Shown one piece after another: positions 13,781 through 41,755 of a stretch of DNA of 64,000 bases. Under the pieces are notes generated by a model, which was given only the letters and a program-made list of their open reading frames with translations, searched no databases and was not told the DNA's origin. The stretch spans positions 111,615 through 175,614 of the forward strand of contig CAZSFZ010000003.1 in assembly GCA_964606385.1 (NCBI GenBank), written 5' to 3'. Made by a program: the position numbers and the translations under genes. This DNA is from an uncultured bacterium. Lineage in GTDB: Bacteria > Omnitrophota > Omnitrophia > Omnitrophales > Aquincolibacteriaceae. Positions within the stretch are counted from its first letter, which is position 1. Each line of letters starts with the position of its first letter.

Positions 13781-16700
13781 CTATGCCGCTCGAGCAAAGA
13801 CGATGCTGTTCTGAAATTCCTGGAGAGCCACGCGCAGCATCGCGCTCGCCATGGAAAGGTCCATGACGCCCTTTTCGGAGGGTTTCTCGTGCTGGTCCGC
13901 GTAAAGAAGCGCCATCGGTACCAACCCCGTTTCTTCCGCGATATAACGGAAATCAAAGATCTTTTTGTTTAAAGCAGAACGCGGGACGCTGCGTTTTGAA
14001 ATGCGGATGATCTTTTCATCTTTCCCGACCGGCATATCTTCCGGAGCAACCTCCGTGATCACAATGCGCCCGGCGCCTAGTTGGCGCTGAAGCCGGGTCA
14101 AACGATCCACCGCGCCCTTCGCAGAAAAAGGCTGGCTTTGATTTCCATAAAAAACGAATTTTACGTTCGGCTGCAGGATCGCCATGGTTTCGAATTCCTG
14201 TAGCTGGGCGTCCGTAAAATACGCTACATCCGCCAGGTCCGTCATGACCGTGAATTTTCCGCGCAGGTTTTCGATCGCTGTCCGCACGGACCGTTTTTCA
14301 TTAAGACCCGAAGATTGAACCGGTTCATATTCTTTGGGGCCGGTTCCGCTCGAGCGAACTTCAGACCGATCAGATTTGTCTTTCGGTGTTTTTCCTGTAA
14401 GTTCCAGCTCACGCGCTTCAGATTTCCGGACGGCTTCGATCGCGGCCTTCGCGTAGGCCTCCGTGAACGCGTCATAAAAACTCGTCCTTTGTCCGCCGAC
14501 GACCACCTGAAGGTTCCGCCCTTCCTCTGAGAAGATCTTGCTGTCGTCAAAGAGGGACCCCTGTTTTTCGGGGTGGGCATTCGCATTGAGCAACAGAAGA
14601 GCGCCATCGCTCTCAATCGCGTTCCTGACAGCGGTCTCATCGGCGTCTGCCCCGGCGCGGATCCGGATCGGAGCGGCCCCTTCACGGCGCGCCTGATCAG
14701 CCCACAACTCTTGCGCGTTCGAAAATTCTTTCCGGCTGTGATCCACCATCACGAGAGGAGCCTTCAAGTCCTTCGCGATCCTGGCGGCCTCTTTCGCCCC
14801 CCACATATCGACCGAAGGGTCCCAAGCTTCTTCCTCATAATTCTCATATTCCCTGTTTTCTCCCGGAAAACTGGATGCTGTTTTCTGCTTGATCAGGATG
14901 AAGCGGGTTTTACCCGGCTGCCATTGAGCGGCCTGCGTGTTCCACCGAGAGGGATCCCCGGACAGCTCCAGCACCCCGAGCTCCGTCTTGACGGCCTCGC
15001 TGAAGTAAGGGAAAAACTGCCCCAGGCTCATGTTCTGCCAAATGACAAGCGGCCTGTCTTTTTTCCCGGACTCATCCATCCAGCGCCGCGCCTCGAGGAT
15101 CTTTTTCAGAGCATAGGCCGCCGAAGGAGTTTCCTTTTCGATCACGTTCCAGACGGAGTAAGAAAGGCCGTCTTGCTGGACCGTGTATCGGGTCAAAAAG
15201 TCAGCCGAACTTTGATAGGCATCGGAATTTCCATCCACCCTCACTTCAGAGCGGCCGCCGACGGCAAACCGCACGATGCGAACCAAAGTTCCGTGTTCGC
15301 TTAAAACACATGGGATCGGCTGCGGCTCAAAAACATGCGGCAAGAAACGATACGCTTCCGAGGAACCCGAAGGGAGAACCGTATGAATTTCAGCAAAACT
15401 ATGCGGCTCCGACCGGACCGCTGAAAGAATATAAGGAAGTCCTTTGCCTCGGTGGGTGCTTCCGGTCATTGAATTTCCGGGCTCCACGGCCCAAAGAACG
15501 GAGGGGATCCCTTCCCCATTATCCAAAGAAAGGATCTCGATCCCTTTGCGCCCCCGGTCTTCGATCGAGCGGGCGACGATCACGCTTTGGGCCTGATTTC
15601 CCGCATGAACACGATTGATCTGGAACTCGTTAAGCACCTGCCCCATCAACTCTTCATCGGTCGAAACCTTCTCCTCACCAAGCATCCGGAAATAGACCGG
15701 CGCCGGTGTCGTCGAAAAACCTGTCTCTTCCAACAGATCGCTCAAACGCGTCCCGCGGTTAAGCTCTGAAAAACCGCTCACCCAATAACCCTTTTCTAGA
15801 AGCTCCTTCGCTGCTTCCTTGGAACCCTTCATCCACCGGCCCGCTAACTCCAGGTCTTCATGCCGCATCTCCGCCCGGTTCCGAGAATCGGGAGGGGTCT
15901 GCTGGGCGGCATAAACACCGTTGAGAGCCTCAAGAACATTGCTTTGATCGGTTTTGTCCCAGATATTGCGTGAGACAAAAAATTCCGCCAGGGGTTCCGG
16001 AAGCCCGTGATCGAGAAGACCTTTCAAGCTCGACACGACAGGACGCGTTGTGTAGGAATAAATTTTAAGATACTGAGTGATCATCTCCCGATTCGTTGCC
16101 GCATTGAACCTGGCGTCTAATAAGGCCTTTAATTCTTGCGCGGTTTTCATGAAATCGATGTCACGCGCTTCCGAACGACCCTTAGATTCAAGCCGCGGCT
16201 CAGCTGCCGGCCATTTTCTTTCTTGTCCGTTCTTCATATTACGAAGCTCAATGAATCCGGGCTCGCGCTTGATCGACTCGGGGTCCAGACCCGCTTCACG
16301 CAAAGCCGCGTCCCATCCACCGCGATCTTTATAGACCTGAAGGGCCTTGTTGTAGACCGACGATGGAGTCCGCGGCGTTCCCAACACCCCGAAAACGACC
16401 CGGGCGCCCGCTTCACTGATTTCCAGTTGGACCGTTCCTCCCCGCAGACTGAATCCTGCTTCATGAAGCGCTTTAAGGACCTGCGGGATCTTTGCTTTTT
16501 CTCCCTCCGTCCATGCCGGGATCTTTTTGGACCACCATTTAAACTGGCGCTGGGCCGCTTCAAGATCGGTCTTCGCTGCTTCATCGTTTGAGGATCCGGC
16601 CTCGCGCATTTCCGACCGTTCCGCCGTAAACCGGACGATCACCGCCGATCCTTTGAACTTGGCAATATCCTGGGCTCGCTTCCCGTCATAGGGCCGGGGA

Positions 16701-19700
16701 ATCACTTTCCTTGCGGCCGTTTCTCCTTTTCGGATCTCCGCCACCTGCCCATGAGAAATGATCGTGACATCGCCTTCCTTGATGACGCGACCCATCGCGA
16801 TCCCGTCGCCACCCCCCTCAGATTTCTGCGCCAGGAAACCGCCATGGACCAAGGCTATATCCAATTCACCCTTCGTGTTGATAGGAAATCCTTCGCCGCG
16901 ATCGATAGCGGCCACGTATCCGGTACCGGTGGCATCATCATAATCCACCACAAGAGCACCCTGCTGATGGGCATACCAATCTACATTTTCTCCGAGGTAG
17001 TTAGCCGCCATTCTCGCATTTCGAATGAATGAATAATTTTTTCCATAGCCCCTCTTGCGAAGATTCTCCGTCGCCTTCCCCATCCACTGATATCCCTCTT
17101 CAGTTCCGTCGATCAGCCCGGCCCATGCGACCACCGCTTTTTCAAACTCCGTACTATCGCCGATGAATACAAATCCTTCTTTCCCGGTTTGAACACTCTT
17201 CACATCGAGCGGAACAGGTTTGTTTCGAAGGTTGAGTTGATCCACTTTCTCCCAAACATCCGTTACCTTGGCCATAACCTCTTCCGGCACGATATCTTTG
17301 TTCCGAGCCTCGGAACGCTTTTTCGTGAGGAGGATGGCCTCGAGACCGGTGCCGCGGGAATTGCGAGTGCCCGCAAGGTCTTTGCCATTCGCCCACAGGA
17401 ACACATCTTTTGCCCCTCTGGCAATGAACTGCTGAATTACCTCCGGCAGATATGCGCCGATGAATTTGGAATCGCCCGCAAGGGTGTTCCCGACCAATAG
17501 TTGTTTCTTTCCGCGCGGATCTTCTGCCAGACCGATAAAGCTGTGGGGGTAATATGCAGCGATCAAACGAATCTCGATTTCGCGACCGTTGATGATCCGA
17601 AACTCCCCTTCGTCGAGTTTTTCTTTCTCTTTGTCTCTTCGCGCATCAAAATCTTTGTATTCCCATTCCAGATATTTCTGACGGATCGCCTCAACCGTTA
17701 ACCCTTTTTTCAATAACGGTTCGAGCGAAAGAACGATCGGCTGTCCCATGAGCGCCAACTTGATAAGTTCGGGGTCTCGATAAAGCTCCCCCAGATCATC
17801 GCTGAACCCAAGTTCGATATTCTGTTCGACTCCGTCCCGTACCATACGGAAAAACGGTAGCCGGAAAATATGGCGAAGATCATCGAATTGTTCATGAAGA
17901 TTCTTGAGATTGTCTTTACCGTTTTTTACGATCCGCTGCCCATAGACCGCATAGCGAATGCCCGTCACGGGATCTCCCCGTTCATCAAAAATACCGCGGG
18001 TGCCATCCGGCTTCATGAGCTGGAGACTCATGACGGAGAGCGAACCATCCTCCCCTGTGACCAGCATGTCATAGACGCGGCCCGCTTTCGGGTCGCGTGC
18101 CGAAGAATATACTTTTCCATCCGCCACGCCGACAAACCAGTCATTGATCCCGAGATTTCCGTTCGGAAGCACAAGCTCGACTTTCTCATCGGAATGTGTG
18201 ACTTCATAGGTTTCAATGAATTGAGAAACAGTCTTCTTGAACGCCTCGACCCGGGGATCATGAGACCCGTAGGGTTTTCCCTCGCGGTCCACATAAAGCG
18301 GCCCATGGACCCTGTCCCGGAAAAGCCGGCTCACGCCGTCAGCTTTGAACCATTGTTTTGTCGGATCTGTTTCGTCCGCGCCGCTCACGCTCAAGACAAC
18401 CTTGATCTTGTCGGGATCAAAGGCCTCTATTTGGGGCTCTACTTTCTGGAACTTCGATGTCCGTATCTCGGACCTCTTCGCTTCATCTTTCTCATTTTTC
18501 CGGATGCGAACATCCCAGCCATATCGATGCGCGGGAGCATCGCTCAAAATACCGCCTCCTCGCAATTTCAGGATGGCCTGAGTAAGTTCTTTATAATGTG
18601 GAATGCTTAATTGCGGGAGCCCTCCCGGGAAACTACTCCCCCGGTCTGTAAACGCGAGTTCGCGCGGCGTGCCGGGGACATGATAGTAGGCATGATCATC
18701 GGTAATAAAATAGCCGCCTTGCGGAAGCGCATCCTGGAGTTCTAAAATAAATCCTGGGTTCTGCGCGTAATCCAGGGGGACTTCCTCACCGGCGCGTTGA
18801 TAGTAACCGTTGAAGCCGGATCCCAAAAGTTCCCGGTAAGCATAAGACCGTGTGATATCGGCATCCACGAACAAAACCGTCCGAGACGATAAGGTTTTCC
18901 CTAGAGGATGTTGCCATTCGAAATCGAGACCAAGTGACTGTTCGTAAGAAGTGATCTGAAAATTTTTAACTCCCAAAGCGTCCAATTCCACGGTCATTGC
19001 GATAAGCCGCTCCAACGGACCCCTTAACCATTCTCCGACAGAATAACCAAAGACTTCTTTATTATAACGATATCGATCCGCTAATTCCGATGCCAACCAG
19101 CGTGCCCGGGTCCCCGGATCCAGGATCTGTCTGGGGTCCATCGGAATTGCTCCGGTCAACGCGTCTTTGAACCACCCGAAGTAATCGGAAATGAACAGCC
19201 CGCGCGTCATATTCGTGCTCAAAAGCGCGTTCGAAAGATCCACGCCGGCTGCGCCATAGATCAATCCGTAATCCTTAAGCGAAGGATTCACCACGCTCAA
19301 AATCATCCAGTCATGGAGAATATAAGCCGGATCCAAAAGATGGCTCACTTCGGATCCCGCCGCCTTTGCTTTCAACCCTTCCCAATTGGCAAATCTTTCC
19401 GCATCTCTCACTTCTGAGCGGTTGGTATTTGCGGCTTGTTCCAATACATCACGAACGTCTTGATTGGCAGGATCGTGAAGAAGCGGGGCGAGGAGATCGC
19501 TGGAAAGCTGGTCGTGGCCGAGGCTCATCAGTTCATCATAAGCGTATTCATGAATGGACCAGACTTCACCAAGACCGTTCTTGGCTTTCTGCTGCGCCTC
19601 AAGCCACTGTTTGAAACCGGCTTCCCCCAACTCGGCAAGCTTCGTCTCTAAAAGTTTTCCCGTAGCCCGGATCTTTTGGATCTCTTCGATGCTGGCAAAA

Positions 19701-25700: not shown

Positions 25701-28700
25701 AAAAAACGGATGTCCGTCAGGATCAAGGTCGCCAGAACTTCCGTTGAAATATTCCGGAGCTTTGCCTGGGCCTGAAGCCATTCCCAAAATGTGCCGGAAG
25801 CTTGCGAAAAAAAGATCCTTGTTAAGGGTTCCGTGGCCTGAACAGGATTCCAGAAAATGTCGGGGAGGAACGGCTCCGGCGCGTTGAACCAGGGAGACGG
25901 ATCCTCACCCGTGATCCCGATCCCGCCGGACCAATGGATCATTTTCCGCGCGTCGCTCGCGAAATTCTTGTCCGAAGGATCCGTCATCGATTCCAGGAAA
26001 AGCCTGCGCCAGTAAAGCGCCTTTTCCCCCAAAACTTCGCGCAGGAGGCTTCTCGCTCCCGAAGACGTTCTTTCAAGGAGTTCCCGTGTCCGGACGATCG
26101 AGGCCTCGAGGGCTTTTTGCCGGGCCTCGGTCTTCCACGGCTCATCAGGAATGTCCGAAGCCCGCACTTCCGAACGGCTCGCAGGATCAAGAGGTTCTCC
26201 CCGCCGGCGCCGTTTTTCACTGTCCAGGTGCCAGGCGTGCGCAAAGGCCTTCACCGCTTTCATATCAAGCCGTCCTTCTTCCGCATGCCTGACAAATTCG
26301 CCCACCGCCTTGTGAGCCGTGATCCCGTTCCGGTAAACACGTTCTACTGTCATCGCATCGAATGAATCCGCAACGGCAATGATCCTTGCTTCCACCGAGA
26401 TTTCTTTTCCGATCAGCCCGCGCGGATACCCCCTGCCGTCCATGCGTTCGTGATGAGAGAGAACGGTCTCGCGGACTTTTTCTAGGCCGGGGATCGAGGA
26501 GAGGAGATCCGCGCCTTTTCGGGAGTGTGTCTTCATGATGATCCATTCCGGGTCTGAAAGAGGATTGGGATTTTTAAGGATCTCTTCGGGGATCTCGAGC
26601 TTCCCGATATCATGCAGGAGAGCCGCTTGGGCCAATGTCAGTGAATGAGGCAGCCTCAATTCTACGGCTGTCATGACCGCAAGACGCATGACCCTCTCCA
26701 TATGACTTAAAATCTCTTCGTCCTTTTCCCGGACTTTTTCCAGAAGCTCCCGGGCCTGGGGAGGCAAAGACTCCACAACCTCCTGAACCGTCCATTGTTT
26801 ATGGGAATCGTCCGTTTCATCGGTGGCTGGCGCCAGAATATCCCTAAGAAGGGTTATTTGATAATCGTCCCGGAAATGATACCCAAGCTTAACAGCCCCG
26901 GATCGTTCCCTCTTTTCCAGATACCGATCATAGAAATCCCTGGATGCCTCACTAAAGGCTTGCCAGAAAACTTCCCGGACCCCCGCCTGGAACATCTGAC
27001 TCAAAAAGACATCCATGAGCCATGTGCCGCGTCCGCGAAGACCGTCTTTCACGGTCAGGATCCTCACAAGTTCCACTTTCTCACGGTCATCGCTCAAACG
27101 GCCATAAATACCTCCCGCGATCCTTCCTTGCGCGTCGATAAAGATCCAGGCTGGGTACCGGGTCAGATTCCTTTCCCACTTATCGGAAGAACCGCTTCGC
27201 AAAACGCCGTCCTGCTGTTTGACATGAAATGCTTCTGCCTCTAATTCACCCAGAACAGCGGCGACCTCCCGGAGTTGTCGCGCATCCAACTCCAAGGCTT
27301 TAACATTGACAATTTTCCCCAAGAGCGGGTCCGAAACCACGACCGCCGCTTCAGGAATTTCCATCTGCAACTGAAAAACGGATTTCGTTGCCGCTACTGA
27401 GATAAGCCTGTCAAGGGTGGCTACCAGAGACTGATATTGGGTGAAAACTTCACGGTGCCCGCCGAGGCCGTATTTTCCGATCACGACCCGACGCAGATTA
27501 TCCTTTTGAAATTGCGCTTCCGCGGCTACTTGCTCGGGCTCTTCGGCGGCCATCGGGATAAGAGAATCCAGTTTTTTCTCAAGCACTCCGAGAAGCCCTT
27601 TCACGATCGCGATCTTCTGCGCTTCGGAAAGATCTTTTTTGTCTTCGTCGCCTTCTGTCCGGACCTCGGAGCGGATCCGGAGATGTTCCAAAAATCTGCC
27701 TGTTAAAAGATCTTGATCCAGGGGCTGAAGTTTTTTAACCCAAGCCCGCTTGAGCGTCAGGCCTCCCTCCCAAGGGATCTTCGTTGAAAGGTCCGTAAAG
27801 ACATAGCCGAAATCCGGCATGTTCTGATCATAGACAATGCGGGCCAAGTCGGGATCCAGGGCTTTCATGTAGAGCCGTTTTTTCATGCGCTCCGCCGCGG
27901 GGCTGCCCCCCATCCACTTGAAAAGCGAGGGGATCATCGGCCGCATCAAAAAGGTCGCGAAGATCTGAACCGCGCGGAAAAACCGGGTCAGGGCATCGCT
28001 CTTCCCATAATGCTGAAGCCTCGCGATGACTCCCGGAAAGGCCCGTTCCGGCCAGCGTTCGAGGATGGTTTCGCTCCCAGGGCTGACGATCTCGGTGACG
28101 CCCGGAAGGGTCCGGGCATACGCTTCCAGGACAAGGCGCATGACTTTCCGCCAATCCTTGTACCTCGTCCGCGTGGTCTCATCTTTTTTGAGGAACGGAT
28201 AGATATCGCTTTGGACTTCCGCCACGACAAGCTGGTGGCCGCGCACATAACAGCGGGCAAAAGCAAGCGATCCCGGCACATGAATGTCCGTGAATTGCCC
28301 TTCCAGAACTTCTGAGGTATGAATGTGTTCCTTTTCCTCATCCGCCGGAAAGAACCCGATCACCTTCGGGTCTTTGGCTGTACCGTACATCCGCCGCGTT
28401 GCTTCGAAAGGAACTTCGCGCGCCTCTCCGCTGAAAAGATCCATTTTGGCTTTTCCGATCTTGAAGCGTTCCTGACCTTGCGGGATATTGATCGTCGCGT
28501 AAAAATCAACATTTCTCGTTTCGGAACGGTTAAAAAGTTTTTCCTGGTTGGCTAAATAAACCACGAGAGGAAATTCTTTGGAATCACGATAACGAAAAGT
28601 GGTCACATCCCATGTCAGGGAACCGCTCAACCGGTCCTCGAAAGTTTTCTTACGATCTTTCTTGGAGGGGTTGGGGTCTCTGAAGATCTTTCCTTTCGCG

Positions 28701-31700
28701 GCGCCTACGTACCGGAGCTGTTCTCCTTCGATTCCTGCGATGACAAAATGCATCACCTCCTGATCGCTGGGGTACATGGGGGGGGTCCGGACCACGACCA
28801 CATCCCCTGTTTTCAGGCCATCCTGTGGTATTTTATCGTATACCTCAAACTCCCCGGGGTTTTGAACCGCATATTTCATCCATTCAAAAGAGCCCTTTTC
28901 GGTAAATTCAGTAACAGAAGATTGTTCTGAAAGCGTTTTGCCAGCCTCTCCGAGGCGGGTGAGACGGACGGCTCGTTGAGGAAATTTGAAGCGAATGGTG
29001 GTTTTGTGACCGTCAAGACCCGGAGAAAGCGCTTCCATGGTACCGTCGTGGGCTTGCGTAACGATTTGGGACATAAGAACACCTATGCCGCCCCGGCTTA
29101 AGATAAAACGTCCGGATCCTTCTCGCGCGGGGCTTTTGGATACGATCTTGAAATATTCCCCGTAGAGGTCCTCGGGAACGAGAGAGGCAATGCCGATGCC
29201 GTCATCGGAAACTTCAAGATAAACATGATCTGCGTCTTGCAAAACCTTAAGATGAACCAGCCCCTCCCGGTCACCGCGGCCGTAAGCTGCCAGTCCGTTC
29301 TTGAGCGCTTCCGCGAGAAGCTCATGAGGTTCCCAGCTTTTCAAATCATGGACAATCCTCCCCCAAGTCCATTCCGGATGCCTTCCAAGCACTTCTTGAG
29401 CTCCTAGGCCGATGATATGATCGATCGGTTCAGTTGCCCATTTCAACCCCACGCGGTCCATGAAGTCCGTTAACATTTCACCTATCAATCCTTCGAGGTC
29501 CGCCTGGGTGTCCTGGAGGGTGGGCGCCGGCCTCATCGAACGGCTTTCGAAAACAACCTCTCTTGTCTCAGATCGTTTTGAGTGATGTTTTTCGCGGCTG
29601 ACCGAAGCATCCTCATAAAAAACCTCTTCGACATCCGCGATCTGCCGATGATCCTTATCCAGAATCGCCCTGAAATCCCCCCCGTTCCCGTGCACGATCC
29701 GTTCGATCTTGGCATAGATCCAAGATGCGGTTTCTGCGGCGGGCCATGCGATGCCGCTGGTATAAAAATCGTTTTCCAAGAAAAATTTTCGAAAGATCTC
29801 CTCGCCACTCCTCCGTCGGACTTCGGAACGAATTTCCTTCGCGGCGCTCATGGGCAATTGGGGCAAAAAGGGTTCGAGTTCGGCCTTCGCCGACCGGATC
29901 ACTTCTTCCTGCTGCCCAGGACGGGTGTCGAAATACCGGCTAAGACCACTTTTATAAACTTTGAACGCTTCCGGGGAAGCCGAAGCTGTGCGCAGGCCAT
30001 GGAGCATTTCCTCTTCAGTAAGCTCTTTTTCAGATCCCGGGTCCTGAATGGCCGTTTTGAAGACCGCTTCCATGAACCCCATATTGCCCGGGAAGATATC
30101 CGGACGTACCTTTGAATACGGTTTGATGTAAATCGCCGCGGGCCGGTTTTTAAAAGGCGCCCGCATGAGCAAGAGATGGGGCGTATCCAGCAACTTCAGG
30201 AAATCCGTGATCAGAGCCGCGTACTTTGCGACACCGCTCGACGAGGGCCCCTTCACGACAAACCACGCTCCTTCATCCGTTGAAAGTTCCGCAACAAAGG
30301 GCCCTCCTTCCTGGGCCGGAATGAATATGTCCTCTTCCTTGACCAGCTGATCTTCGATCCATGTGCTGTCCGAAACAAAACCGTGGGCATGTTGGGGCTT
30401 ATCTCCCATTCCGACAGCCGTCCCTCCATGGAACGCAAGCGCGACATTTCCGACCCCGAATCGTTCAAGCGCCTTCATCATGATTAAAAGGGACCGGCGG
30501 TCGACTGTTTGGTTGTGAAGCTCTCGATGATTAATGGCAAGGACGAAGTGATACGGCAAAAACGGCATATAACTGCGCAGGATGTGGACGTGAAGCCCAT
30601 CAATATTAAAATCGAGAAGCTTCTGGTGGGGATACTTGGCGGCAATTTCCTTCCAAGGCATGCCGGCGGCAGAGCGATCGACCGGTTTTGTAACAAAACC
30701 CGGAGCATTTTTGTAGAACGCTATCCACGCAACAACTTTGCGGAGAAATCCCCGGGGGCCGGGGATGGCCTCCGTTCTGACATCTTTGAGGTAGGAGAAC
30801 CCCGCGCCCCCCGCCCCCGTATAGGCTTCGGTTGCTTCGTAGCGTTTTTCAAACTCACGGAATACCGCGCTTGTAAAATGTTTGTCTTTTTCCTCTTTAC
30901 CGGCCCCGGGCAATTCGGAATGCGCTTGAGCCTGGGAAGTCTCGTCGCGCTGCGCTTTTCGAAGGGACCTGATGATCGAGGCACGTTCATCGCCGGAGAG
31001 CTCCGGGATTTTTTTATAAACATCAATAATTCGATCGAAAAGGCTTTTCGAAACCGTCTCGGTCTCAAGAGCTTCTTTGATTTCACCCATGATCGCGTCA
31101 GGAACATAGGAAAAGCCCGCGAATTCTGGAAATCCGGGACGCTCGACCGGAAAGAGGGCTGAGGGAGTACGCGATCTCGGGAAGATATAGAAGGTCCCTC
31201 CGCTCAGAATCACATTGTGCGGGATATCGGCGCTTCGGAGAACCCCGATATATTTTAATGCTTCTGCGCCCGCGGTTTGAGGGTCTTTCCCCGAAAAAAC
31301 CACGGCTCGGGCGCGATAATCGGTCAATTGCTCCACACGCACATCCAAGGGGGTCACCGCTATTTCTGTCCTGGCGGTTTGGTCCAGCCGCGAAGCTCCT
31401 CTCGAAACCGGCACAAGCATTACTGAAAAATAAAGTTGCCTGAATCGGGCGCCGGCAATCATGCTGTCAAATCCTATATAGACCCGGTACTGACCGCCTT
31501 CAGAAAGAGCGCGAACTATGGCCGCCATATATTCAAAAGCTTTTTGATTCATGACTTGAGGCAGGTTCGCGGACATATCAGCCACCACATAAAAATGATT
31601 AGGCCTGGACCCTCGTCCGGCTGTTAGAATGCGAACGCCGTTCGAAATCCCCTCGATCGAAACAGATTTCTCAAAAAGGTCGCTCCTGTCACCGTCAAGC

Positions 31701-34231
31701 AAGCCTTCGTAACCGGGTACGGGTCGTTCCCGGTCCGATGAGTGAGTCGCGGACCATTGCGCCATAAAAAGGTCCTTGAGCCCCGGGTCATCCATATCAC
31801 TCATGAGATAGGTCGGCTCCATTTCTTCAAACAACGCGGGCGGCAGCAGTAAGCCTTCGGATTTTTTCGAGAGTTTTTTCGAGCCTTGCACGCCACGCGC
31901 CCGTTCCAAAATCTTCACGGAAAGCGGTGCTTCAGTGAATGGTTCTTCCGTTTTCTTCCGCTCCATGCCCTGGGGCTTAAGCTGTCTGACCTCCGAACGG
32001 GCTTTTTCGCTTTTTACACTTTCAAAACGAATGTAATCCCGGATCGCCTGGTCAGTCCGGGGCCAGACCTCCAGCATCTTGAAGATCCCGCGCCTGAACT
32101 TTTCATAATCATTGCCGGGCGCAGCCAAACCGGAATTAAAAGCAGCATTCAGTAAATAGGGAAGCTGTATATCGTAAGGAACGGGGTCAGCTTGTGTTCC
32201 CTGATATTTGTCGAGAGTAGTCTTGTAAGCTGTAAAATCCTCTTTAAGGATCAACCGGAACATTTCCGAGTTTCTTGAAAACGTTTGCCGGATCTCTTCG
32301 AGCGCTTTGTCGAGATCTTGTAAATTCGCCTCTTTTTCCCCGAATTCCCAAAAAAGCATTTCGAGGATCCCGGAGAGGATCTGTTCCTTATTCGCAAAAA
32401 GATGGGTGCTGAAAACGCCCAGAGCCGTTTGGGTATCCAATACCTGCCCGTTCATGATATAAACCGTCTTTTTCAGGCGAGCATGCTTCCCAATCCACAT
32501 TTTAAGGCTTGAAAAATACTTTATAGCGGAAGAAGCCCGCTTAAGAAGATCGGGTTCATCCCAATCCGGCTCAGACGGCCACACCTCTTCCCTCATTTCC
32601 GCGCGTTGAGAGGAACCTTCCAATGCGCGATCCATTTTAAGCACAAAATCCTGGGACGGCTCGCCGCGCAAAGGTCCGGCGGCTTCAAGAAGACGGGATA
32701 ACGCGGGGGCGTAATCCATGGTCACAGCGCGTTGCGGGCAGGTGCTTTCACGGGCCACGCTCTCCGGACCATGCGCCACGCCCGCCTCACCGCTTTTCGT
32801 GTCCCGTGTCCCGTGTCCCACAGCCCAATCTTTTTCAAAATCATGTTTTCCCCCGCTCATGAGCATGCGGTAATAATCCTGATGCCGTTTGCTGGGGGCG
32901 CCGATCGCGGGAGAAAGAATGACGTAGCCGATCCCTTTTTCTTTCAGGATCTTTTTAATGGCCTCTTTGTGGAAACCGCCGAACACAAGCGCCGCGGCCT
33001 TGGCTTCCGGGTCCTGGAGAAAACCGTCGAAGATCTTCCCGATCGAAAGGTCGCGCTTCATCGCGAGCTCATAGAACCGGGTAGCGTCGGTGATGAGCCC
33101 CTCCCAGGAACGGAACATCACGATCGAACGGCCCGTTTCCTGAGCAAGAAACCGGGCCACGTCCTCGGTCTTGAGGCCTTCGAGCGATCCTTTGAGCTCG
33201 GTGAATTCCTCGTGGCTCAACTCGATCGCATTCATTTTTTCAAGCAGCAAAACGCTTTGGTAATAACCGTAAGTTTTTCTGTCCCGCTCGGAAGAGAGGC
33301 CGGACTCAACGATCTCCCCTTCCAGCTGTTCGATCTCTTTCAGGAGTGCCATGAGATCGATCTGCTGGATCTTTTTCTCATCACCGGAAAGCAACTTTGA
33401 AATTTCGGGGAATGATGAGCGGGGAACGTCCAGCGCTTTCGTTTCCCGTTCCACGTTTCCCGTTCCACGGGTTTTCCATGTTCGCTGGAGATATTCCACG
33501 AGCGGCATCTGCCCCTGCTGGTACCGCTCCTTCAACTTCAACCATTCCTTCATTTCCTTGGGAAAATTTTTATCGATGAGTTTTTGGAGTTCCTTGCGGA
33601 TGAGCCAGATATCGCGGGTCACCTCCCCTCGGTTTTTTGCGGCTTGTTCGTAAGCGCGGATGTTCTCGAGGTGCAGCGCGATCGAATCAGCGCCCACAAG
33701 CTGAAAGTCGCTTTGCGGAGAACGGGGAACGGGGAACGCTGAGCGATCCGTTAACCGTTCACCGTTAGCCGTTTCCCGGGAGGACGGTTCTGCCGACCGA
33801 TTAATGTGCGCATACTCCGCCCCGCCGACACGGAGCTTGTCCATCAGGTAGTAAGAGAGCTTTTCCTTGAGCGCAGGGTCGTCGATCGCGCCAAAGATCT
33901 TGTCCGTCGGGACGGGGCCTTCGTAGCCTTCTTCATAAACGGTCTTGATCCCGTATTCTTTGACCAGGTAGCGGACCATGCCGGCGATATTTTCTTGCGC
34001 TTCGAGGGAATCATGCGCGTCCTGGATATAGACAAGTGTTTTACCCGACTTCCCGGCCGAGGTCTCCATCAGGCTGCCGAGTTTCTCGGGCAATTGGAAG
34101 GACGAGCGAAGTTCGGCTCCCGGCATCACGGGCGACAATGATTCGAGAGGCATAGCGATCGCGTTCGTCGTCACAAAACAAACGACGACTACCAAGCTGA
34201 CGATCCGTTTAAAGCCAGAACCTCTTATCAT
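13781..34231 (-). CDS. giant multidomain protein, 6,816 aa. Signal peptide plus internal TM segments and many fused enzyme modules separated by a recurring RSE[VI]R motif
   Basis: Uninterrupted 20,451-nt ORF. N-terminal signal peptide (MIRGSGFKRIVSLVVVVCFVTTNAIAMP). GHKL ATPase motifs (EVSDDGIGI, GGIGV) near nt 29190. GNAT-like motif. HD-GYP (HHERMDGRGYP) near nt 26420-26465. HExxH (VVIHEGTHL) near nt 24590. FHA-like (YRSTNGT) near nt 23300. SAM MTase motifs (VLDLMSGK; LDVGTGSGIFAALA near nt 20705-20765). Nudix box GGHVQTRQGYRDTVKHEIVEELGL at nt 19817-19888. GAGAGGT RBS before the ATG at 34231. Confidence 0.8.
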   Translation of the reverse strand: MIRGSGFKRIVSLVVVVCFVTTNAIAMPLESLSPVMPGAELRSSFQLPEKLGSLMETSAGKSGKTLVYIQDAHDSLEAQENIAGMVRYLVKEYGIKTVYEEGYEGPVPTDKIFGAIDDPALKEKLSYYLMDKLRVGGAEYAHINRSAEPSSRETANGERLTDRSAFPVPRSPQSDFQLVGADSIALHLENIRAYEQAAKNRGEVTRDIWLIRKELQKLIDKNFPKEMKEWLKLKERYQQGQMPLVEYLQRTWKTRGTGNVERETKALDVPRSSFPEISKLLSGDEKKIQQIDLMALLKEIEQLEGEIVESGLSSERDRKTYGYYQSVLLLEKMNAIELSHEEFTELKGSLEGLKTEDVARFLAQETGRSIVMFRSWEGLITDATRFYELAMKRDLSIGKIFDGFLQDPEAKAAALVFGGFHKEAIKKILKEKGIGYVILSPAIGAPSKRHQDYYRMLMSGGKHDFEKDWAVGHGTRDTKSGEAGVAHGPESVARESTCPQRAVTMDYAPALSRLLEAAGPLRGEPSQDFVLKMDRALEGSSQRAEMREEVWPSEPDWDEPDLLKRASSAIKYFSSLKMWIGKHARLKKTVYIMNGQVLDTQTALGVFSTHLFANKEQILSGILEMLFWEFGEKEANLQDLDKALEEIRQTFSRNSEMFRLILKEDFTAYKTTLDKYQGTQADPVPYDIQLPYLLNAAFNSGLAAPGNDYEKFRRGIFKMLEVWPRTDQAIRDYIRFESVKSEKARSEVRQLKPQGMERKKTEEPFTEAPLSVKILERARGVQGSKKLSKKSEGLLLPPALFEEMEPTYLMSDMDDPGLKDLFMAQWSATHSSDRERPVPGYEGLLDGDRSDLFEKSVSIEGISNGVRILTAGRGSRPNHFYVVADMSANLPQVMNQKAFEYMAAIVRALSEGGQYRVYIGFDSMIAGARFRQLYFSVMLVPVSRGASRLDQTARTEIAVTPLDVRVEQLTDYRARAVVFSGKDPQTAGAEALKYIGVLRSADIPHNVILSGGTFYIFPRSRTPSALFPVERPGFPEFAGFSYVPDAIMGEIKEALETETVSKSLFDRIIDVYKKIPELSGDERASIIRSLRKAQRDETSQAQAHSELPGAGKEEKDKHFTSAVFREFEKRYEATEAYTGAGGAGFSYLKDVRTEAIPGPRGFLRKVVAWIAFYKNAPGFVTKPVDRSAAGMPWKEIAAKYPHQKLLDFNIDGLHVHILRSYMPFLPYHFVLAINHRELHNQTVDRRSLLIMMKALERFGVGNVALAFHGGTAVGMGDKPQHAHGFVSDSTWIEDQLVKEEDIFIPAQEGGPFVAELSTDEGAWFVVKGPSSSGVAKYAALITDFLKLLDTPHLLLMRAPFKNRPAAIYIKPYSKVRPDIFPGNMGFMEAVFKTAIQDPGSEKELTEEEMLHGLRTASASPEAFKVYKSGLSRYFDTRPGQQEEVIRSAKAELEPFLPQLPMSAAKEIRSEVRRRSGEEIFRKFFLENDFYTSGIAWPAAETASWIYAKIERIVHGNGGDFRAILDKDHRQIADVEEVFYEDASVSREKHHSKRSETREVVFESRSMRPAPTLQDTQADLEGLIGEMLTDFMDRVGLKWATEPIDHIIGLGAQEVLGRHPEWTWGRIVHDLKSWEPHELLAEALKNGLAAYGRGDREGLVHLKVLQDADHVYLEVSDDGIGIASLVPEDLYGEYFKIVSKSPAREGSGRFILSRGGIGVLMSQIVTQAHDGTMEALSPGLDGHKTTIRFKFPQRAVRLTRLGEAGKTLSEQSSVTEFTEKGSFEWMKYAVQNPGEFEVYDKIPQDGLKTGDVVVVRTPPMYPSDQEVMHFVIAGIEGEQLRYVGAAKGKIFRDPNPSKKDRKKTFEDRLSGSLTWDVTTFRYRDSKEFPLVVYLANQEKLFNRSETRNVDFYATINIPQGQERFKIGKAKMDLFSGEAREVPFEATRRMYGTAKDPKVIGFFPADEEKEHIHTSEVLEGQFTDIHVPGSLAFARCYVRGHQLVVAEVQSDIYPFLKKDETTRTRYKDWRKVMRLVLEAYARTLPGVTEIVSPGSETILERWPERAFPGVIARLQHYGKSDALTRFFRAVQIFATFLMRPMIPSLFKWMGGSPAAERMKKRLYMKALDPDLARIVYDQNMPDFGYVFTDLSTKIPWEGGLTLKRAWVKKLQPLDQDLLTGRFLEHLRIRSEVRTEGDEDKKDLSEAQKIAIVKGLLGVLEKKLDSLIPMAAEEPEQVAAEAQFQKDNLRRVVIGKYGLGGHREVFTQYQSLVATLDRLISVAATKSVFQLQMEIPEAAVVVSDPLLGKIVNVKALELDARQLREVAAVLGELEAEAFHVKQQDGVLRSGSSDKWERNLTRYPAWIFIDAQGRIAGGIYGRLSDDREKVELVRILTVKDGLRGRGTWLMDVFLSQMFQAGVREVFWQAFSEASRDFYDRYLEKRERSGAVKLGYHFRDDYQITLLRDILAPATDETDDSHKQWTVQEVVESLPPQARELLEKVREKDEEILSHMERVMRLAVMTAVELRLPHSLTLAQAALLHDIGKLEIPEEILKNPNPLSDPEWIIMKTHSRKGADLLSSIPGLEKVRETVLSHHERMDGRGYPRGLIGKEISVEARIIAVADSFDAMTVERVYRNGITAHKAVGEFVRHAEEGRLDMKAVKAFAHAWHLDSEKRRRRGEPLDPASRSEVRASDIPDEPWKTEARQKALEASIVRTRELLERTSSGARSLLREVLGEKALYWRRLFLESMTDPSDKNFASDARKMIHWSGGIGITGEDPSPWFNAPEPFLPDIFWNPVQATEPLTRIFFSQASGTFWEWLQAQAKLRNISTEVLATLILTDIRFLQFLTVCYFAKKYDRFFPGMPVTIAAKTERAEATAKHLQSSLQKSPDLFQLFRSLRTQLPIEKEKNNAAEEVFYQHGRAITLGAELIKKAFSEGVYRSGALELASTTVGTAIDFPNVHENEIDAFHLEEVLRWVKANLDLNVLFTLPPAALAAKKPNVPDTDVSINGRSEIRTLLAAETKFTELLEVLKSVVSDKAKRKAKANELVAALRKGRIHSYEDVREVLGPDVSIAKLKTLFEISGLQSRAPPATSRKGFVLKASLAVSLAVTIAIAAFFVFQMTSSDTDRIARRFNRIAATVMDPAARESIQDLIKEFREHAKIDETRIDPLSIHPFIRQQANKAGELSGIQVNKDFALEMPQMIVKYVVIHEGTHLRNAHLRYATNQGFEDFMKRLNALRPAKGTVDPNEILKDPEILRAVFRTYASQIEDEKLAYQAEDEAMMADIRSAGSHEAFVKKMFEGLGDGNEDRRRNGIVVGYMEGVGQRWDAEKGTPSEDGTQAYVLKVLLNTPYLEQGVGHLHYLRNVYLQTVYAMTQGTADAGMIQLTGDLDRPFRVTDYKRLAAWTYEQAQKLGVHPQTETRVDHHEKRSEVRSAGIPARFTPLALKNAPKMQTIAWEGKTYNFVAISVMLQSQDQKNLAFLLVEHMNPELRKDFLDMLSPELKKTVLNYLHSPASEPTMILQDRQLRGEDFTAMFFGRVILGVGEHVETSPVQFEIEPLADGRIAFRIYSRGDADTYEVDFNKTYMVARDHVPEDKIQAAELFTVDSEFVTSGRHFSFRVFRDDEGNLWITIEDYRSTNGTVLSAEIYPATVAYEGRDQDMVRYSELLKLILASLGDLLKADDKKPVKDDPIHHYKHAVDETCRLYQESAEFGELEKLRKEVIQEVLFANVVGQAVDRTNYALEALEKLLQEDRISIWLPVLEVAVSYLPAGKMNPKFFRLLQVISSEKIRQAPTKLKRDVMRILSGVAGNPTEFSNQPPLEHEMTKTIRLDIIPGQDMTPKNRSEVRTDFVSKWRDAQRRKMLESPDLRLLNYLVHRTGFSPEQKKAYIRLWELMSLSVPLFAISKTVLSTLSTALVATHPLFAFVPVSIWFFMSPFLRLVFLIAPFTWIYKLRVNTLFWANFFPAGGAFIAVPSQLFELVRDEYRRYPGMSFKQLRDLHHQVIAHVSAMPAEGTHSFSREALLARSSELTFNLLEWRSAQHASGTKVKNLFPDDISELLSGSGPRPRSEMREGSQSDFRDVVNETPYLEWAPGQMIEQKLATLLPEGAKVLDLMSGKFSYVPAASQASEVIGVGLNDKEMALNKKLTSYRVQDVNEKPAFPEEWKGRFDAVVMTSGAAYAEDLPSLFRAAAETLKEGGTLFVAYNPDYYSPEATAVWKGMKADEKAKAVTDALEAAKSFSVPRHERKSYVGRFDLSQDMDMIFAVKNIRSEIRTDVKLQNPDYVFLFGHIGLNFDRSVAGVRGGFDIIEGRIEPLKMRSFEKWLLDLNRHSSESEVMMPSRRIGAEIFLAQKNAEETENQFFERVLIGESSKIRASLIENSDGQSLAIESPSFVLIVPVMSEAEVRRNQKNPNDAWDPWAYPDEAQAAAQMQKAGELFPGKPVFMNGAPIFYTEDGFMNVRGRLMSKNRVSDKFAALLGGMELKTGFKTLDVGTGSGIFAALAVQKGSGQVTATDTDDLSLELAKWNVRRLGLQDKVRVAYGDPFTGEAVGVDEKFDLILASLPLQHGAAAAKQLTLRFLRELPAHLDPNGKALVFLYQGTMSRYMRRRTDLTKIQDPDCEKVFQASLAPLDFNARGVSSIAFYHQADEDHIYTIFEIARSKTVSEPIRPETKGVQPKLRQQLEKIKEDPSAGLDSAKIQDILTAIENGSLKLKGEDVDIIKSENGIETVIGAIDRNIAHRYGLMHRVPTTFIMTPEGKFLLQRRAHNIAEPMRLSLFGGHVQTRQGYRDTVKHEIVEELGLPEDWKIDDSKLQTIRTEGAFASPEWDGKNRERRSHYVYFASIEEIQKIRATGKLLETKLAELGEAGFKQWLEAQQKAKNGLGEVWSIHEYAYDELMSLGHDQLSSDLLAPLLHDPANQDVRDVLEQAANTNRSEVRDAERFANWEGLKAKAAGSEVSHLLDPAYILHDWMILSVVNPSLKDYGLIYGAAGVDLSNALLSTNMTRGLFISDYFGWFKDALTGAIPMDPRQILDPGTRARWLASELADRYRYNKEVFGYSVGEWLRGPLERLIAMTVELDALGVKNFQITSYEQSLGLDFEWQHPLGKTLSSRTVLFVDADITRSYAYRELLGSGFNGYYQRAGEEVPLDYAQNPGFILELQDALPQGGYFITDDHAYYHVPGTPRELAFTDRGSSFPGGLPQLSIPHYKELTQAILKLRGGGILSDAPAHRYGWDVRIRKNEKDEAKRSEIRTSKFQKVEPQIEAFDPDKIKVVLSVSGADETDPTKQWFKADGVSRLFRDRVHGPLYVDREGKPYGSHDPRVEAFKKTVSQFIETYEVTHSDEKVELVLPNGNLGINDWFVGVADGKVYSSARDPKAGRVYDMLVTGEDGSLSVMSLQLMKPDGTRGIFDERGDPVTGIRYAVYGQRIVKNGKDNLKNLHEQFDDLRHIFRLPFFRMVRDGVEQNIELGFSDDLGELYRDPELIKLALMGQPIVLSLEPLLKKGLTVEAIRQKYLEWEYKDFDARRDKEKEKLDEGEFRIINGREIEIRLIAAYYPHSFIGLAEDPRGKKQLLVGNTLAGDSKFIGAYLPEVIQQFIARGAKDVFLWANGKDLAGTRNSRGTGLEAILLTKKRSEARNKDIVPEEVMAKVTDVWEKVDQLNLRNKPVPLDVKSVQTGKEGFVFIGDSTEFEKAVVAWAGLIDGTEEGYQWMGKATENLRKRGYGKNYSFIRNARMAANYLGENVDWYAHQQGALVVDYDDATGTGYVAAIDRGEGFPINTKGELDIALVHGGFLAQKSEGGGDGIAMGRVIKEGDVTIISHGQVAEIRKGETAARKVIPRPYDGKRAQDIAKFKGSAVIVRFTAERSEMREAGSSNDEAAKTDLEAAQRQFKWWSKKIPAWTEGEKAKIPQVLKALHEAGFSLRGGTVQLEISEAGARVVFGVLGTPRTPSSVYNKALQVYKDRGGWDAALREAGLDPESIKREPGFIELRNMKNGQERKWPAAEPRLESKGRSEARDIDFMKTAQELKALLDARFNAATNREMITQYLKIYSYTTRPVVSSLKGLLDHGLPEPLAEFFVSRNIWDKTDQSNVLEALNGVYAAQQTPPDSRNRAEMRHEDLELAGRWMKGSKEAAKELLEKGYWVSGFSELNRGTRLSDLLEETGFSTTPAPVYFRMLGEEKVSTDEELMGQVLNEFQINRVHAGNQAQSVIVARSIEDRGRKGIEILSLDNGEGIPSVLWAVEPGNSMTGSTHRGKGLPYILSAVRSEPHSFAEIHTVLPSGSSEAYRFLPHVFEPQPIPCVLSEHGTLVRIVRFAVGGRSEVRVDGNSDAYQSSADFLTRYTVQQDGLSYSVWNVIEKETPSAAYALKKILEARRWMDESGKKDRPLVIWQNMSLGQFFPYFSEAVKTELGVLELSGDPSRWNTQAAQWQPGKTRFILIKQKTASSFPGENREYENYEEEAWDPSVDMWGAKEAARIAKDLKAPLVMVDHSRKEFSNAQELWADQARREGAAPIRIRAGADADETAVRNAIESDGALLLLNANAHPEKQGSLFDDSKIFSEEGRNLQVVVGGQRTSFYDAFTEAYAKAAIEAVRKSEARELELTGKTPKDKSDRSEVRSSGTGPKEYEPVQSSGLNEKRSVRTAIENLRGKFTVMTDLADVAYFTDAQLQEFETMAILQPNVKFVFYGNQSQPFSAKGAVDRLTRLQRQLGAGRIVITEVAPEDMPVGKDEKIIRISKRSVPRSALNKKIFDFRYIAEETGLVPMALLYADQHEKPSEKGVMDLSMASAMLRVALQEFQNSIVFARAA

Positions 34232-34542
34232 TCCGTCTGTTACCTCTCTTTTTTCTACGATTTGAATCTCTAAAAAATACGGCCGTATTTTCGATTAAAC
34301 ATCTTTCAAAAAGACTTGAGTTGCATGCTTGCGCCTTTGTAAATGGATATTTTTAGTTTTAAGAATAGATTCTCAAAATTTCGAACAGCATAGTCCTTAA
34401 AATGTAACCTCCCAAAAGCTCTTTTTCAAGAGAGGAGCTGTTTTTATAGGACTTATTTTGAAATAAATTCGATGTTTTATTGACTTTGTTTCATAATATG
34501 AATATATTATATGATTATTATGTATATATAGGAGGCTACATT

Positions 34543-40417: not shown

Positions 40418-40476
40418 AACGGCTTTTTTAAACTGCAATATGGTTCCCCCCTTGTAAGACGCCTGAGCAATAAAAA

Positions 40477-40563
40477 CGGAGAGGGAGGGATTCGAACCCC
40501 CGAGACGCTTGCGCGCCTAACGGTTTTCAAGACCGCCGCATTCAACCGCTCTGCCACCTCTCC
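40477..40563 (-). tRNA. tRNA-Ser (anticodon UGA)
   Basis: Minus strand reads GGAGAGGTGGCAGAGCGGTTGAATGCGGCGGTCTTGAAAACCGTTAGGCGCGCAAGCGTCTCGGGGGTTCGAATCCCTCCCTCTCCG. 7-bp acceptor, 3-bp D-stem, anticodon loop CTTGAAA, long variable arm, GGTTCGAATCC T-arm. CCA is not encoded. Confidence 0.85.
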
Positions 40564-40644
40564 ATCAAAAATCTATTGGTAGGGTGTGCTGTCCTGGCCA
40601 CCTTTATTTTAAAAACAAGGCCAGGGCTGCCACCTCTCCATTAA

Positions 40645-41438: not shown

Positions 41439-41441
41439 AAT

Positions 41442-41515
41442 CGCGCCCGGCAGGAGTTGAACCTGCAACCCCCACATCCGTAGTGTGGTGCTCTATCCAA
41501 TTGAGCTACGGGCGC
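41442..41515 (-). tRNA. tRNA-Arg (anticodon ACG)
   Basis: Minus strand reads GCGCCCGTAGCTCAATTGGATAGAGCACCACACTACGGATGTGGGGGTTGCAGGTTCAACTCCTGCCGGGCGCG. Anticodon loop CTACGGA. CCA is not encoded. Confidence 0.85.
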
Positions 41516-41755
41516 AAACCACATTAATTTTTTATTCTATAATGCTTGTTCGCGACCAGTCCTTTAGGACAGGCGCAAACTGTTTTAACTTATTATATTC
41601 ATTACACTTAAAGATCTTAGAGGGTATCGGTGTTTGACCGTTCGCCCCTCACCGAGGATCGGCCCGAAAACATGCAAGCAAGGCAAACCATTCCTAAAGA
41701 GGGCGTTATTATACGCATTTTAGGGGGAAATGCAAAAATTGTTCCATGGAATCAT

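Follow-up and report, generated by a model that had tools for sequence, protein, structure and literature searches.

When a bacterial gene encodes one very long chain of unrelated enzymes, does the chain act as a whole, or is it cut into separate proteins? The question is raised by a giant open reading frame (ORF) in a 64,000-nucleotide stretch of DNA from an uncultured member of the Omnitrophota (assembly GCA_964606385.1, contig CAZSFZ010000003.1, positions 111,615 to 175,614). We call this whole stretch the window, and positions are counted from its first letter. The ORF occupies 20.4 kb at 13781..34231 on the minus strand, and its 6,816 codons encode a product of 6,816 amino acids (aa). An independent Logan assembly of SRR15237811 (contig SRR15237811_5136) holds the identical 6,816-aa product together with the same neighbours. 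The pentapeptide R-[S/A]-E-[V/L/M/A/I/T]-R recurs along the protein, and we give about an even chance to the reading that it marks where a modular bacterial polyprotein is processed between its modules. One translated chain would then begin and end with a constant module, and between these two would lie highly variable, unrelated enzyme or membrane modules. Reading the pentapeptide in flexible linkers, a site-specific endopeptidase would free the modules. The freed modules would act as separate proteins or be targeted as such, by Sec, twin-arginine translocation (Tat), the lipoprotein route or membrane insertion.

We read the motif copies from the translation of the ORF and took the chance level from 2,000 residue shuffles. 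There are 18 copies of RSExR and 2 of RAEMR, giving 20 motifs and 21 modules, with a motif spacing of 85-723 aa. Shuffled sequences contained RSExR 0.18 times on average and 3 times at most, so the count is far above random, as a preliminary description of the window had expected. RSExR is the commonest gapped pentamer of the protein, and the next commonest has 3 copies. Outside the giant ORF, RSE[VIMAT]R was found in none of the six frames of the 64-kb window. Self-BLASTP revealed no internal paralogy between modules, and the surroundings of the motif are not conserved either. The first boundary is RAEMR at residue 543, at the end of the N-terminal domain (32591..32605; all motif copies lie on the minus strand), and it aligns with RAEHRSETR of the short relative L006g. 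RSEVR follows at residues 745 (31985..31999) and 1468 (29816..29830), RSETR at 1553 (29561..29575) and 1902 (28514..28528), RSEVR at 2187 (27659..27673) and 2686 (26162..26176), RSEIR at 3011 (25187..25201), RSEVR at 3430 (23930..23944) and 3846 (22682..22696), RSEMR at 4071 (22007..22021) and RSEIR at 4273 (21401..21415). Beyond the five copies between residues 4938 and 6019, which are given with the structural model below, come RAEMR at 6119 (15863..15877) and RSEVR at 6327 (15239..15253) and 6622 (14354..14368). The last of these opens the C-terminal domain. The preliminary description had listed 19 copies; each of its positions was recovered within ~35 nt and every context it quoted was correct, but it had missed the RAEMR at residue 543. 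Its codon strings were right except for one, which reads agg-tcc-gag-ata and not -atc, and its spacing of 200-720 aa gives way to the range measured here. It had also seen a different recognisable domain in each interval; a Pfam-recognisable domain is present in only 5 of the 21.

The recurrence lies in the peptide and not in the DNA beneath it. Codons vary from copy to copy, with five different Arg codons and both Glu codons in use, and the sole DNA "repeat" in the giant gene is the motif itself (25 nt, 72-84% identity). The differing codons rule out a DNA repeat as the explanation, in line with the earlier claim of conservation at the protein level. A degenerate DNA pattern of the motif, MGNTCNGARNNNMGN, has 23 matches in the window, where 7.3 are expected by chance, and 18 of the 23 are the in-frame copies. 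Codon choice within the motif is uneven. Across 42 copies from the window gene, L003, L005 and L006 (loci introduced below), the motif Ser is TCN in all 42, while AGY makes up 33% of Ser codons elsewhere; the first Arg is CGY in 32 copies, compared with 38% elsewhere; and the fifth-position Arg codon is purine-ended in 36. The position-2 alternatives S, A, P and T all have NCN codons. This bias probably reflects deep conservation, and an RNA-level constraint on the motif codons may act as well.

One alternative holds that the motif is the fingerprint of cassette acquisition, by recombination or gene fusion, and has no function in the protein. Since the DNA is degenerate at every synonymous position, 15 nt cannot be a recombination site, and only selection on the peptide keeps R, E and R; neither flanking DNA nor flanking protein is conserved. 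These three residues are invariant in ~980 copies across proteins less than 50% identical. An acquisition scar would accommodate the uniform TCN serine and the mostly CGY first arginine, and the modules do behave as motif-bounded mobile cassettes, at a locus that is hypervariable although its flanking genes agree at 80-92% identity between genomes. Nonetheless, we consider it very unlikely. A second alternative is that separate products arise at the motif without proteolysis, because the ribosome skips a peptide bond there or starts translation internally. Start codons are among those for M, V, L and I, the residues preferred at position 4, and independent targeting signals behind the motif would be explained too. 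The codons actually used rule out internal start codons at position 4: the 18 copies in the window have 4 GTG, 2 ATG and 3 ATA, the others being GTC, GTT, ACN and GCN, so that most are not start codons. Shine-Dalgarno spacing is lacking, as is a conserved peptide upstream of the kind required for 2A-type skipping, and this route seems to us barely credible.

If the pentapeptide is a processing signal, it should not be confined to one protein. With the N-terminal module (aa 28-542) as query, a HMMER search of 1.84 billion representative proteins returned 5,422 matches at E<=1e-3 and 294 at E<=1e-30. Family counts below refer to the best 150 of these matches, and pooled motif statistics to 154 proteins with 438,378 aa. 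The best 150 members are 436-7,652 aa long and have the domain at the N-terminus, and 123 of them begin with a signal-peptide-like segment. All named members are from Omnitrophota, and their annotations are trivial, such as "methyltransferase domain-containing protein" or "(d)CMP kinase." In the pooled set, RSExR was counted 782 times, where chance would give 12.2, and RAExR 197 times, where chance would give 16, with a further 26 copies of RPExR, so the conservation in homologues called for by the preliminary description is borne out across a large family. At least one copy is present in 140 of the 150 members and at least three in 115, including 102 of the 118 that are 1,500 aa or longer. 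In most members no gapped pentamer is commoner than R[S/A]ExR. Its median density is 2.05 per 1,000 aa, and the first copy has a median position of 518, just past the N-terminal domain. Lineages have their own preferences, among them RSELR, RAEVR (15 copies in P0131) and RPEAR (8 in P0068), and in some of them position 2 is relaxed to T, G, N or P. The flanks have the composition of linkers: P, S, T, G and A are enriched upstream and T, S and N at +1, and aromatics and Cys are depleted.

The pattern of substitutions says something about what may read the motif. Position 4 is mostly aliphatic (V 262, L 258, M 165, A 115, I 69, T 44). R1, E3 and R5 are near-invariant, with K in 12 copies at position 1 against R in 744, and D in 4 at position 3 against E in 744. 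This preference for Arg over Lys and for Glu over Asp points to a dedicated recognition pocket. Ala occupies position 2 in about 20% of copies, which argues against a phosphosite and against self-cleavage by a Ser nucleophile or N-to-O acyl shift, both of which are unlikely, and in favour of recognition by an enzyme. It also bears on the proposal that the motif is a modification or regulatory site, occurring once per module, for Arg or Ser modification or as a degron. Modification of Ser is not essential, since Ala stands in its place in ~20% of copies and some lineages have Pro, Thr, Asn or Gly there, and the signal peptides found behind the motif would go unexplained. The proposal does draw on the strict requirement for Arg and Glu, on an ssrA-like x-[A/S]-A tail at the C-terminus and on the many transferases among the modules. 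We think it very unlikely indeed.

Motifs also occur in tandem, 27-35 residues apart, at aa 1096/1131 and 2758/2792 of L003g, at aa 468/495 of P0005 and at aa 2959 of P0010. Family-wide, 88 internal modules are shorter than 40 aa, and the spacer in P0010 is a single transmembrane helix. Such spacers would be mini-peptides if the chain were cut.

Closer relatives show what happens between the motifs. Searching genome contigs with the last 1,564 aa of the protein led to two Candidatus Omnitrophota metagenome-assembled genomes (L002, L003), and a metagenome scan with the C-terminal domain to three more loci (L004-L006). The motif count is 9 RSExR and 1 RAEAR in L002g, 12 RSExR and 1 RAELR in L003g, and 11 RSExR and 1 RAEAR in L005g, from the same species as L002. 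The fragments P0002 and P0005 have 5 copies each, and the small L006 protein has RAEHRSETR and RSEAR at its two module borders, as well as two more pattern matches, RSESR and RSERR, inside its N-terminal domain. The chance expectation in each of these relatives (L002g, L003g, L005g, L006g, P0002, P0005) is at most 0.1 copies. The flanks of L003 and L006 are syntenic with the window at 75-93% identity, and YchF follows the gene in all four loci at 91-93%. Between these flanks the gene product ranges from 6,816 aa in the window to >3,517 aa in L003 and ~1,183 aa in L006, and only the N- and C-terminal domains can be aligned between the window and L003 or L006, at ~50-63% identity. The giant gene is thus a hypervariable gene at a fixed chromosomal locus.

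The unit of this variation is the motif-bounded module. Splitting 156 proteins at the motif gave 1,022 modules of at least 40 aa, which form 664 clusters; 566 of the clusters have a single member. Just two modules recur, the N-terminal domain (in 146 proteins, first in 143) and the C-terminal domain (in 82, last in 81, always opening at a motif). L002g and L003g share a 200-aa module at 78% identity, although its distance from the C-terminus is ~680 residues in one protein and ~3,400 in the other. Module 14 (17318..18475, minus strand), which is homologous to PF09992-bearing domains of P0003, P0004 and P0005, is a precise motif-to-motif insertion or deletion relative to L002g and P0002, from which it is absent. 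Its left edge is RSEIR at residue 5253 (18461..18475) and its right edge RSEAR at residue 5639 (17303..17317). Modules 17-18, missing from L002g, are likewise a motif-to-motif insertion or deletion relative to L002g and P0002, and their left edge is RSEAR at residue 6019 (16163..16177). Beside it, RLESK at aa 6013-6017 (16181..16195, minus strand) aligns with RSEVR or RSEIR of L002g and P0002; here the ancestral RSEVR has decayed, and the live RSEAR that opens modules 17-18 stands one residue on. This suggests that one copy per border is kept by selection.

Borders of homology agree with the motif. Between proteins, 44% of the ends and 32% of the starts of high-scoring segment pairs fall at a motif, compared with 10% and 8% when the pairs are shifted at random. 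Homologues of module 13 that lack the motif (P0006-P0009) give alignments that start ~25 residues past the motif and end 2-8 residues before the next, and they have Pro/Thr/Ser-rich linkers in its place. The linkers of motif-less P0006 and P0007 contain the strings SSEPSPEF, ESEPSPFF and SSEPASAA. Module 15 of L002g and P0002 contains LRSEPSP where the window protein has LRNKPVP (aa about 5668-5685). Strings of the SSEPSPEF type may be a different linker signature in other clades.

We modelled aa 4920-6040 with AlphaFold2 from a 10-sequence alignment. All five motifs in the model lie in segments with a predicted local distance difference test (pLDDT) score below 50, and three of them adjoin domains of pLDDT 80-90. 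RSEVR at residue 4938 (19406..19420), aligned with RSEIR of L002g and P0002, is in such a stretch; the RSEIR at 5253 sits in a dip between two confident domains, modules 13 and 14 (pLDDT 80-93). The other three are the RSEAR copies at 5639 and 6019 and, between them, RSEMR at residue 5872 (16604..16618), which is conserved in L002g and P0002. The preliminary description had asked whether motifs fall in disordered linkers, and within the reach of this shallow alignment they do.

Indirect evidence on cutting comes from what lies right behind the motif. We scanned for Tat signals by pattern and hydropathy, requiring [ST]-R-R-x-[FL]-[LIV] followed by a hydrophobic stretch and, after it, AxA or a lipobox. 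L002g and L005g have a canonical Tat signal peptide directly behind a motif, ~1,500 residues into the ORF: RSETR-ILSTRRTFLTGLFAVGAIAITGAPIKALA-QW. Internal modules of L005g, P0067, P0094, P0095 and P0120 match the Tat consensus, and the P0120 signal also has a lipobox. Seven Tat-type signals, ~6 of them convincing, lie at most 30 aa past a motif; a uniform spread would put 0.8 there. One more is found 43 aa past a motif, and the remaining four internal matches are unconvincing. More generally, transmembrane- or signal-like segments are 2-3x enriched in the first 40 aa past a motif relative to further downstream, and several look like lipoprotein or Sec signal peptides. Some signal-like segments start right at the motif, as in RSEVR-AFFTLGVV... 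and RSEAR-SAKFVTAVSLLFFALAGVIGC. If the motif Args serve as the positive n-region of these signals, this weakly suggests a cut at or before the motif and not after it.

The modules themselves pose a second problem for an intact chain. The window protein begins with a Sec-type signal peptide at aa 1-27 (34151..34231, minus strand), MIRGSGFKRIVSLVVVVCFVTTNAIA/MP (...NAIA, then MP), recognised by a hydropathy scan and aligned with the signal peptide of the L006 orthologue. Behind such N-terminal Sec signals stand modules that use cytoplasmic cofactors: S-adenosylmethionine (SAM) methyltransferase, GNAT, NUDIX, HD and ATPase modules, and in L003g a radical SAM enzyme (PF04055, 7e-17). Both the internal targeting signals and the cytoplasmic-cofactor modules would cease to be a problem if the chain were cut at the motif. 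Processing in the cytoplasm would be the best fit to the Tat signals and the cofactor-dependent modules. Taken together, the family-wide motif, the low-pLDDT linkers, the borders of homology blocks and the targeting signals behind the motif uphold the layout of a polyprotein or of linker sites that the preliminary description had proposed.

The same observations are hard on the idea that the chain stays uncut and that the pentapeptide is a docking motif in linkers, to be bound by a chaperone, by a factor for secretion or targeting, by a scaffold or by one of the protein's own two terminal domains. Docking would leave unexplained the Tat, Sec and lipoprotein signals right behind deep internal motifs and the radical SAM-, SAM-, ATP- and acetyl-CoA-dependent modules behind a Sec signal. 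It fits the strict motif, the disordered linkers and the family-wide conservation equally well, and the constant N- and C-terminal "bookend" domains are possible binding partners. It also accords with the published view of Omnitrophota giants as single membrane-associated proteins. The strictness for R and not K and for E and not D, with one copy per boundary, fits an enzyme site at least as well, and the redundant neighbouring copy, RLESK, has decayed. On balance we regard docking as unlikely.

If an enzyme reads the motif, which one? The N-terminal domain (module 0, aa 28-542, 32606..34150, minus strand) is the only conserved catalytic-looking domain of the family, and the preliminary description had missed it. 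In its AlphaFold2 model (pLDDT 76, predicted template modelling score 0.72) it has an alpha/beta fold with a central parallel beta-sheet. This is the fold common to ChaN, Ere/Bcr135/136, HopBA1, TraB, RRSP and PMT, the TIKI/TraB/ChaN/erythromycin-esterase superfamily (PMC6254334). The catalytic signature of that superfamily consists of two His and two Glu, arranged as E-x-H, a Glu ~28 residues later and a distal His; in Bcr135 the catalytic pair is His-85/Glu-113 (PMC6254334). Its members include site-specific endopeptidases, namely Tiki and RRSP, the latter cutting Ras at one bond (PMC6254334). In the window domain the putative active-site residues are D71, H73, E100, E101, H142, R145 and G418-G-F-H421. 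Across ~152 sequences, D71-x-H73, E100/E101 and GGFH421, together with E139, H142 and R145, are invariant or nearly so, and the conserved D/H/E residues sit just past beta-strands in the model. Compared by sequence spacing, H73 and E101 are 28 residues apart, as in the Bcr135 pair, and the first acid is Asp here. The window domain differs from the known superfamily in being fused to a multi-kiloresidue chain and in having, in the model, a large helical insertion of ~230 aa.

Profile searches give a thinner picture. PF04187 (Cofac_haem_bdg/ChaN, of the Tiki superfamily) matches 1 of 19 members at E 8.5e-5, the match not being placed within the protein. The window domain has no Pfam and no NCBIfam match, and a PDB search with the profile of the N-terminal family returned a low-complexity artefact only. 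The presence of the motif goes some way with that of the domain: P0006, P0008 and P0009, multidomain Omnitrophota proteins with other N-terminal domains, have zero motifs, and P0007 and L007b, which lack E100, H142 and R145, have 0 motifs in 2,578 aa and 2 in 3,133 aa. The N-terminal domain of the second giant gene of L007 is divergent, with E100L, H142A and R145E. This gene, on contig Ga0495435_0000499 (L007:5315-14714, 4,750 aa called), has just two motifs in its first 3,133 aa and starts 600 nt past the end of motif-bearing P0005. P0005 itself was considered as a motif-bearing protein that lacks the N-terminal domain and was set aside, being cut by the contig end.

These data make the N-terminal TIKI-like domain the leading candidate for the protease, a doubtful one and not an identification; an unlinked protease is equally possible. 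Two other domains were discarded. The preliminary description had pointed to the HExxH module, module 8, as a possible cis-acting protease. Its HEGTH (aa 3211-3215, 24587..24601, minus strand) is the sole HExxH in the window protein, but the module forms a singleton cluster, and HExxH is absent from the close relatives L003g, L005g, L006g, P0002 and P0005 and occurs in only 30 of 150 family members. As for the C-terminal domain, the only residues kept in at least 80% of its sequences are a single Gly and the final Ala, and it has no conserved catalytic residues.

Several points weigh against processing at the motif. Cleavage itself, its compartment and the cutting enzyme are inferred from sequence. 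The N-terminal Sec signal implies that the candidate protease domain should act outside the cytoplasm, and the Tat signals imply release inside, so these lines conflict. Internal Tat signals are known to work uncleaved in rare dual Sec/Tat membrane proteins, such as the Streptomyces Rieske protein. The low confidence around the modelled motifs stems in part from the 10-sequence alignment, and module 15 is poorly predicted throughout. The motif begins only 2-8 aa past the upstream domain, leaving little room for a protease. In P0139, whose N-terminal domain is intact, there are just 2 copies in 4,646 aa. Finally, RSEVR lies inside the folded C-terminal domain of L002g (aa 2611, L002:7831-7845) and L005g (aa 3382), where its counterpart in the window protein is QPNVK, within a predicted strand. 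This is probably a chance or non-border copy, and not every match is a border.

How would such processing compare with known systems? Viral polyproteins, cut by picornavirus 3C, flavivirus NS2B-NS3 or potyvirus NIa, share the single long ORF, the unrelated functional units parted by a strict repeated motif in linkers, and the targeting signals on individual units. They differ in that the present gene is chromosomal and bacterial, sits at a syntenic housekeeping locus, and encodes up to 23 cellular-type enzyme modules of hypervariable content. No chymotrypsin-like or other classical viral protease was detected in the window protein, and to our knowledge R-[S/A]-E-h-R matches no viral cleavage site. 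MARTX toxins (multifunctional autoprocessing repeats-in-toxin), whose effectors include RRSP, are cut in linkers after Leu, at sites that lack a strict pentapeptide. In contrast to MARTX, the window protein has no RTX or glycine-rich repeats (Pfam scans of all modules; no internal repeats) and no cysteine protease domain (no peptidase Pfam match; 7 Cys), and it has an N-terminal Sec signal in place of type I secretion, with YchF, RlmN, CorA and PepA as neighbours. In cyanobactin PatE precursors, processed by PatA/PatG, and in pro-hormones cut by Kex2/furin, a dedicated protease reads recognition sequences that flank the cassettes. These resemble the present protein in their repeated recognition sequences and hypervariable cassettes, but their cassettes are a few residues long, whereas here they are folded enzymes or membrane proteins of 85 to >1,000 aa. 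Arg-anchored motifs mark effectors in Plasmodium (PEXEL, RxLxE/Q/D, cut by plasmepsin V) and in oomycetes (RxLR). That parallel is an analogy only, as theirs occur once, near the N-terminus of separate proteins, and here there are ~20 inside one chain.

The nearest comparison is with other Omnitrophota giants, grouped as Archaeovorins, Dockerin-type and multi-enzyme clusters, which come from the same phylum, share the mix of HATPase_c, radical SAM, NUDIX, GNAT and methyltransferase domains, and pose the same puzzle of enzymes of cytoplasmic type for which an extracellular location is predicted. With many distinct enzyme Pfams and none dominating, the window protein belongs with the "multi-enzyme" long proteins (class 1) of a 2026 preprint. 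At 20.4 kb, with no dockerin, SecA or C39 match, it stands outside the giant class of West-Roberts 2023 (>90 kb ORFs). The Omnitrophota giant-gene papers propose C39 and S8 peptidase domains, and neither was found in the window protein. The two main giant-gene studies both ask whether such a protein works as one chain or in pieces, and according to one of them the lack of cleavage points blocked further analysis. The 2026 preprint treated signal-peptide calls outside the first chunk as an artefact of chunking and suppressed them (10.64898/2026.06.07.730766). These two papers mention no punctuating motif, polyprotein or TIKI-like N-terminal domain, and in the literature searched the motif is nowhere described and no work combines "polyprotein" with Omnitrophota. 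This agrees with the earlier statement that no bacterial system with such punctuation has been described.

What would be new here is a polyprotein strategy at a cellular, chromosomal and hypervariable locus, with a new site specificity. The motif at module borders offers a concrete cleavage map for the question left open by the giant-gene studies, and it lets giants be split for structure and topology prediction. Cleavage at the motif would settle why cytoplasmic-type enzymes look "extracellular." It would also amount to a rare virus-style polyprotein in a cellular genome, with a new protease specificity and possibly a new TIKI-fold activity. A bolder proposition, which we hold to be somewhat improbable, is that Omnitrophota swap operons for cellular polyproteins, with up to ~20 unrelated proteins per ORF, be they cytosolic, membrane-bound or exported, cut at R-[S/A]-E-h-R by a TIKI-family endopeptidase in the first module, and with rapid module turnover among close relatives. 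Should the motif also punctuate the giants of 40,000-147,000 aa, these would be polyproteins and would lose their rank as the largest known proteins, and the sequence would show directly where they are cut. The extreme cassette turnover at the locus, with products of 6,816 aa and ~1,183 aa where the adjoining genes agree at ~90% identity, bears on the evolution of predatory or host-dependent nanobacteria.

Several modules of the window protein have recognisable domains, all on the minus strand. Module 4 (28529..29575) is a HATPase_c (PF02518, 4e-9). Module 6 (26177..27673) combines a GNAT-like region with an HD (HD_5) phosphohydrolase (PF13487 2e-37, PF01966 9e-21, PF00583 6e-4). Module 11 (21416..22021) is a class I SAM methyltransferase (PF13489, PF08241), and module 12 (19421..21415) joins a PrmA/MTS-like methyltransferase (PF05175, 2e-11) to a NUDIX hydrolase (PF00293, 5e-8). 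Module 8 has a transmembrane-like helix at aa 3102-3120 (24872..24928, KD19 = 2.43), and a hydropathy scan located transmembrane-like segments at aa 3919-3953 of module 10 (22373..22477). No NCBIfam model covers either terminal domain or eight further modules, and a word-indexed search returned no relatives of modules 7-10 or of the Tat-signal module of P0001. The whole protein has 7 Cys in its 6,816 aa. Module 20, the C-terminal domain (aa 6622-6816, 13784..14368), is 49-67% identical to its counterparts in L002, L003 and P0002 and ends in ...FARAA-COOH. C-terminal domains mostly end in x-[A/S]-A (WSA, IAA, RAA, VAA), and 108 of 150 family proteins end in [A/S]-A-COOH. This tail resembles an ssrA tail or the recognition tail of a tail-specific protease.

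The genes around the giant ORF are of the housekeeping kind: YchF, a hexapeptide transferase, RNase H, PepA and RsmB downstream, and RlmN and CorA upstream. A divergent gene at 34480-36198 on the plus strand encodes 572 aa from a TTG start, with a signal peptide and Asp-box/BNR-like repeats (SxDxGxTW). Its product has no Pfam match and no protease signature, and the gene is kept at the same position in L006 at 63% identity, below that of the housekeeping neighbours. The RNA genes that Rfam recognises in the window are only tRNA-Ser(TGA) and tRNA-Arg(ACG), at 40476-40564 and 41441-41516 on the minus strand. Further along are seven consecutive radical SAM genes at 43257-55840 on the minus strand, together with 41756-43231, 56713-57888 and 60744-63470. 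One of the run has B12-binding and SPASM domains, and another is fused to a GT2 glycosyltransferase. The run is flanked by a TPR and GDSL-lipase protein, a GT1 and a 908-aa ABC-ATPase-like protein, and it looks like a large modification or biosynthesis cluster.

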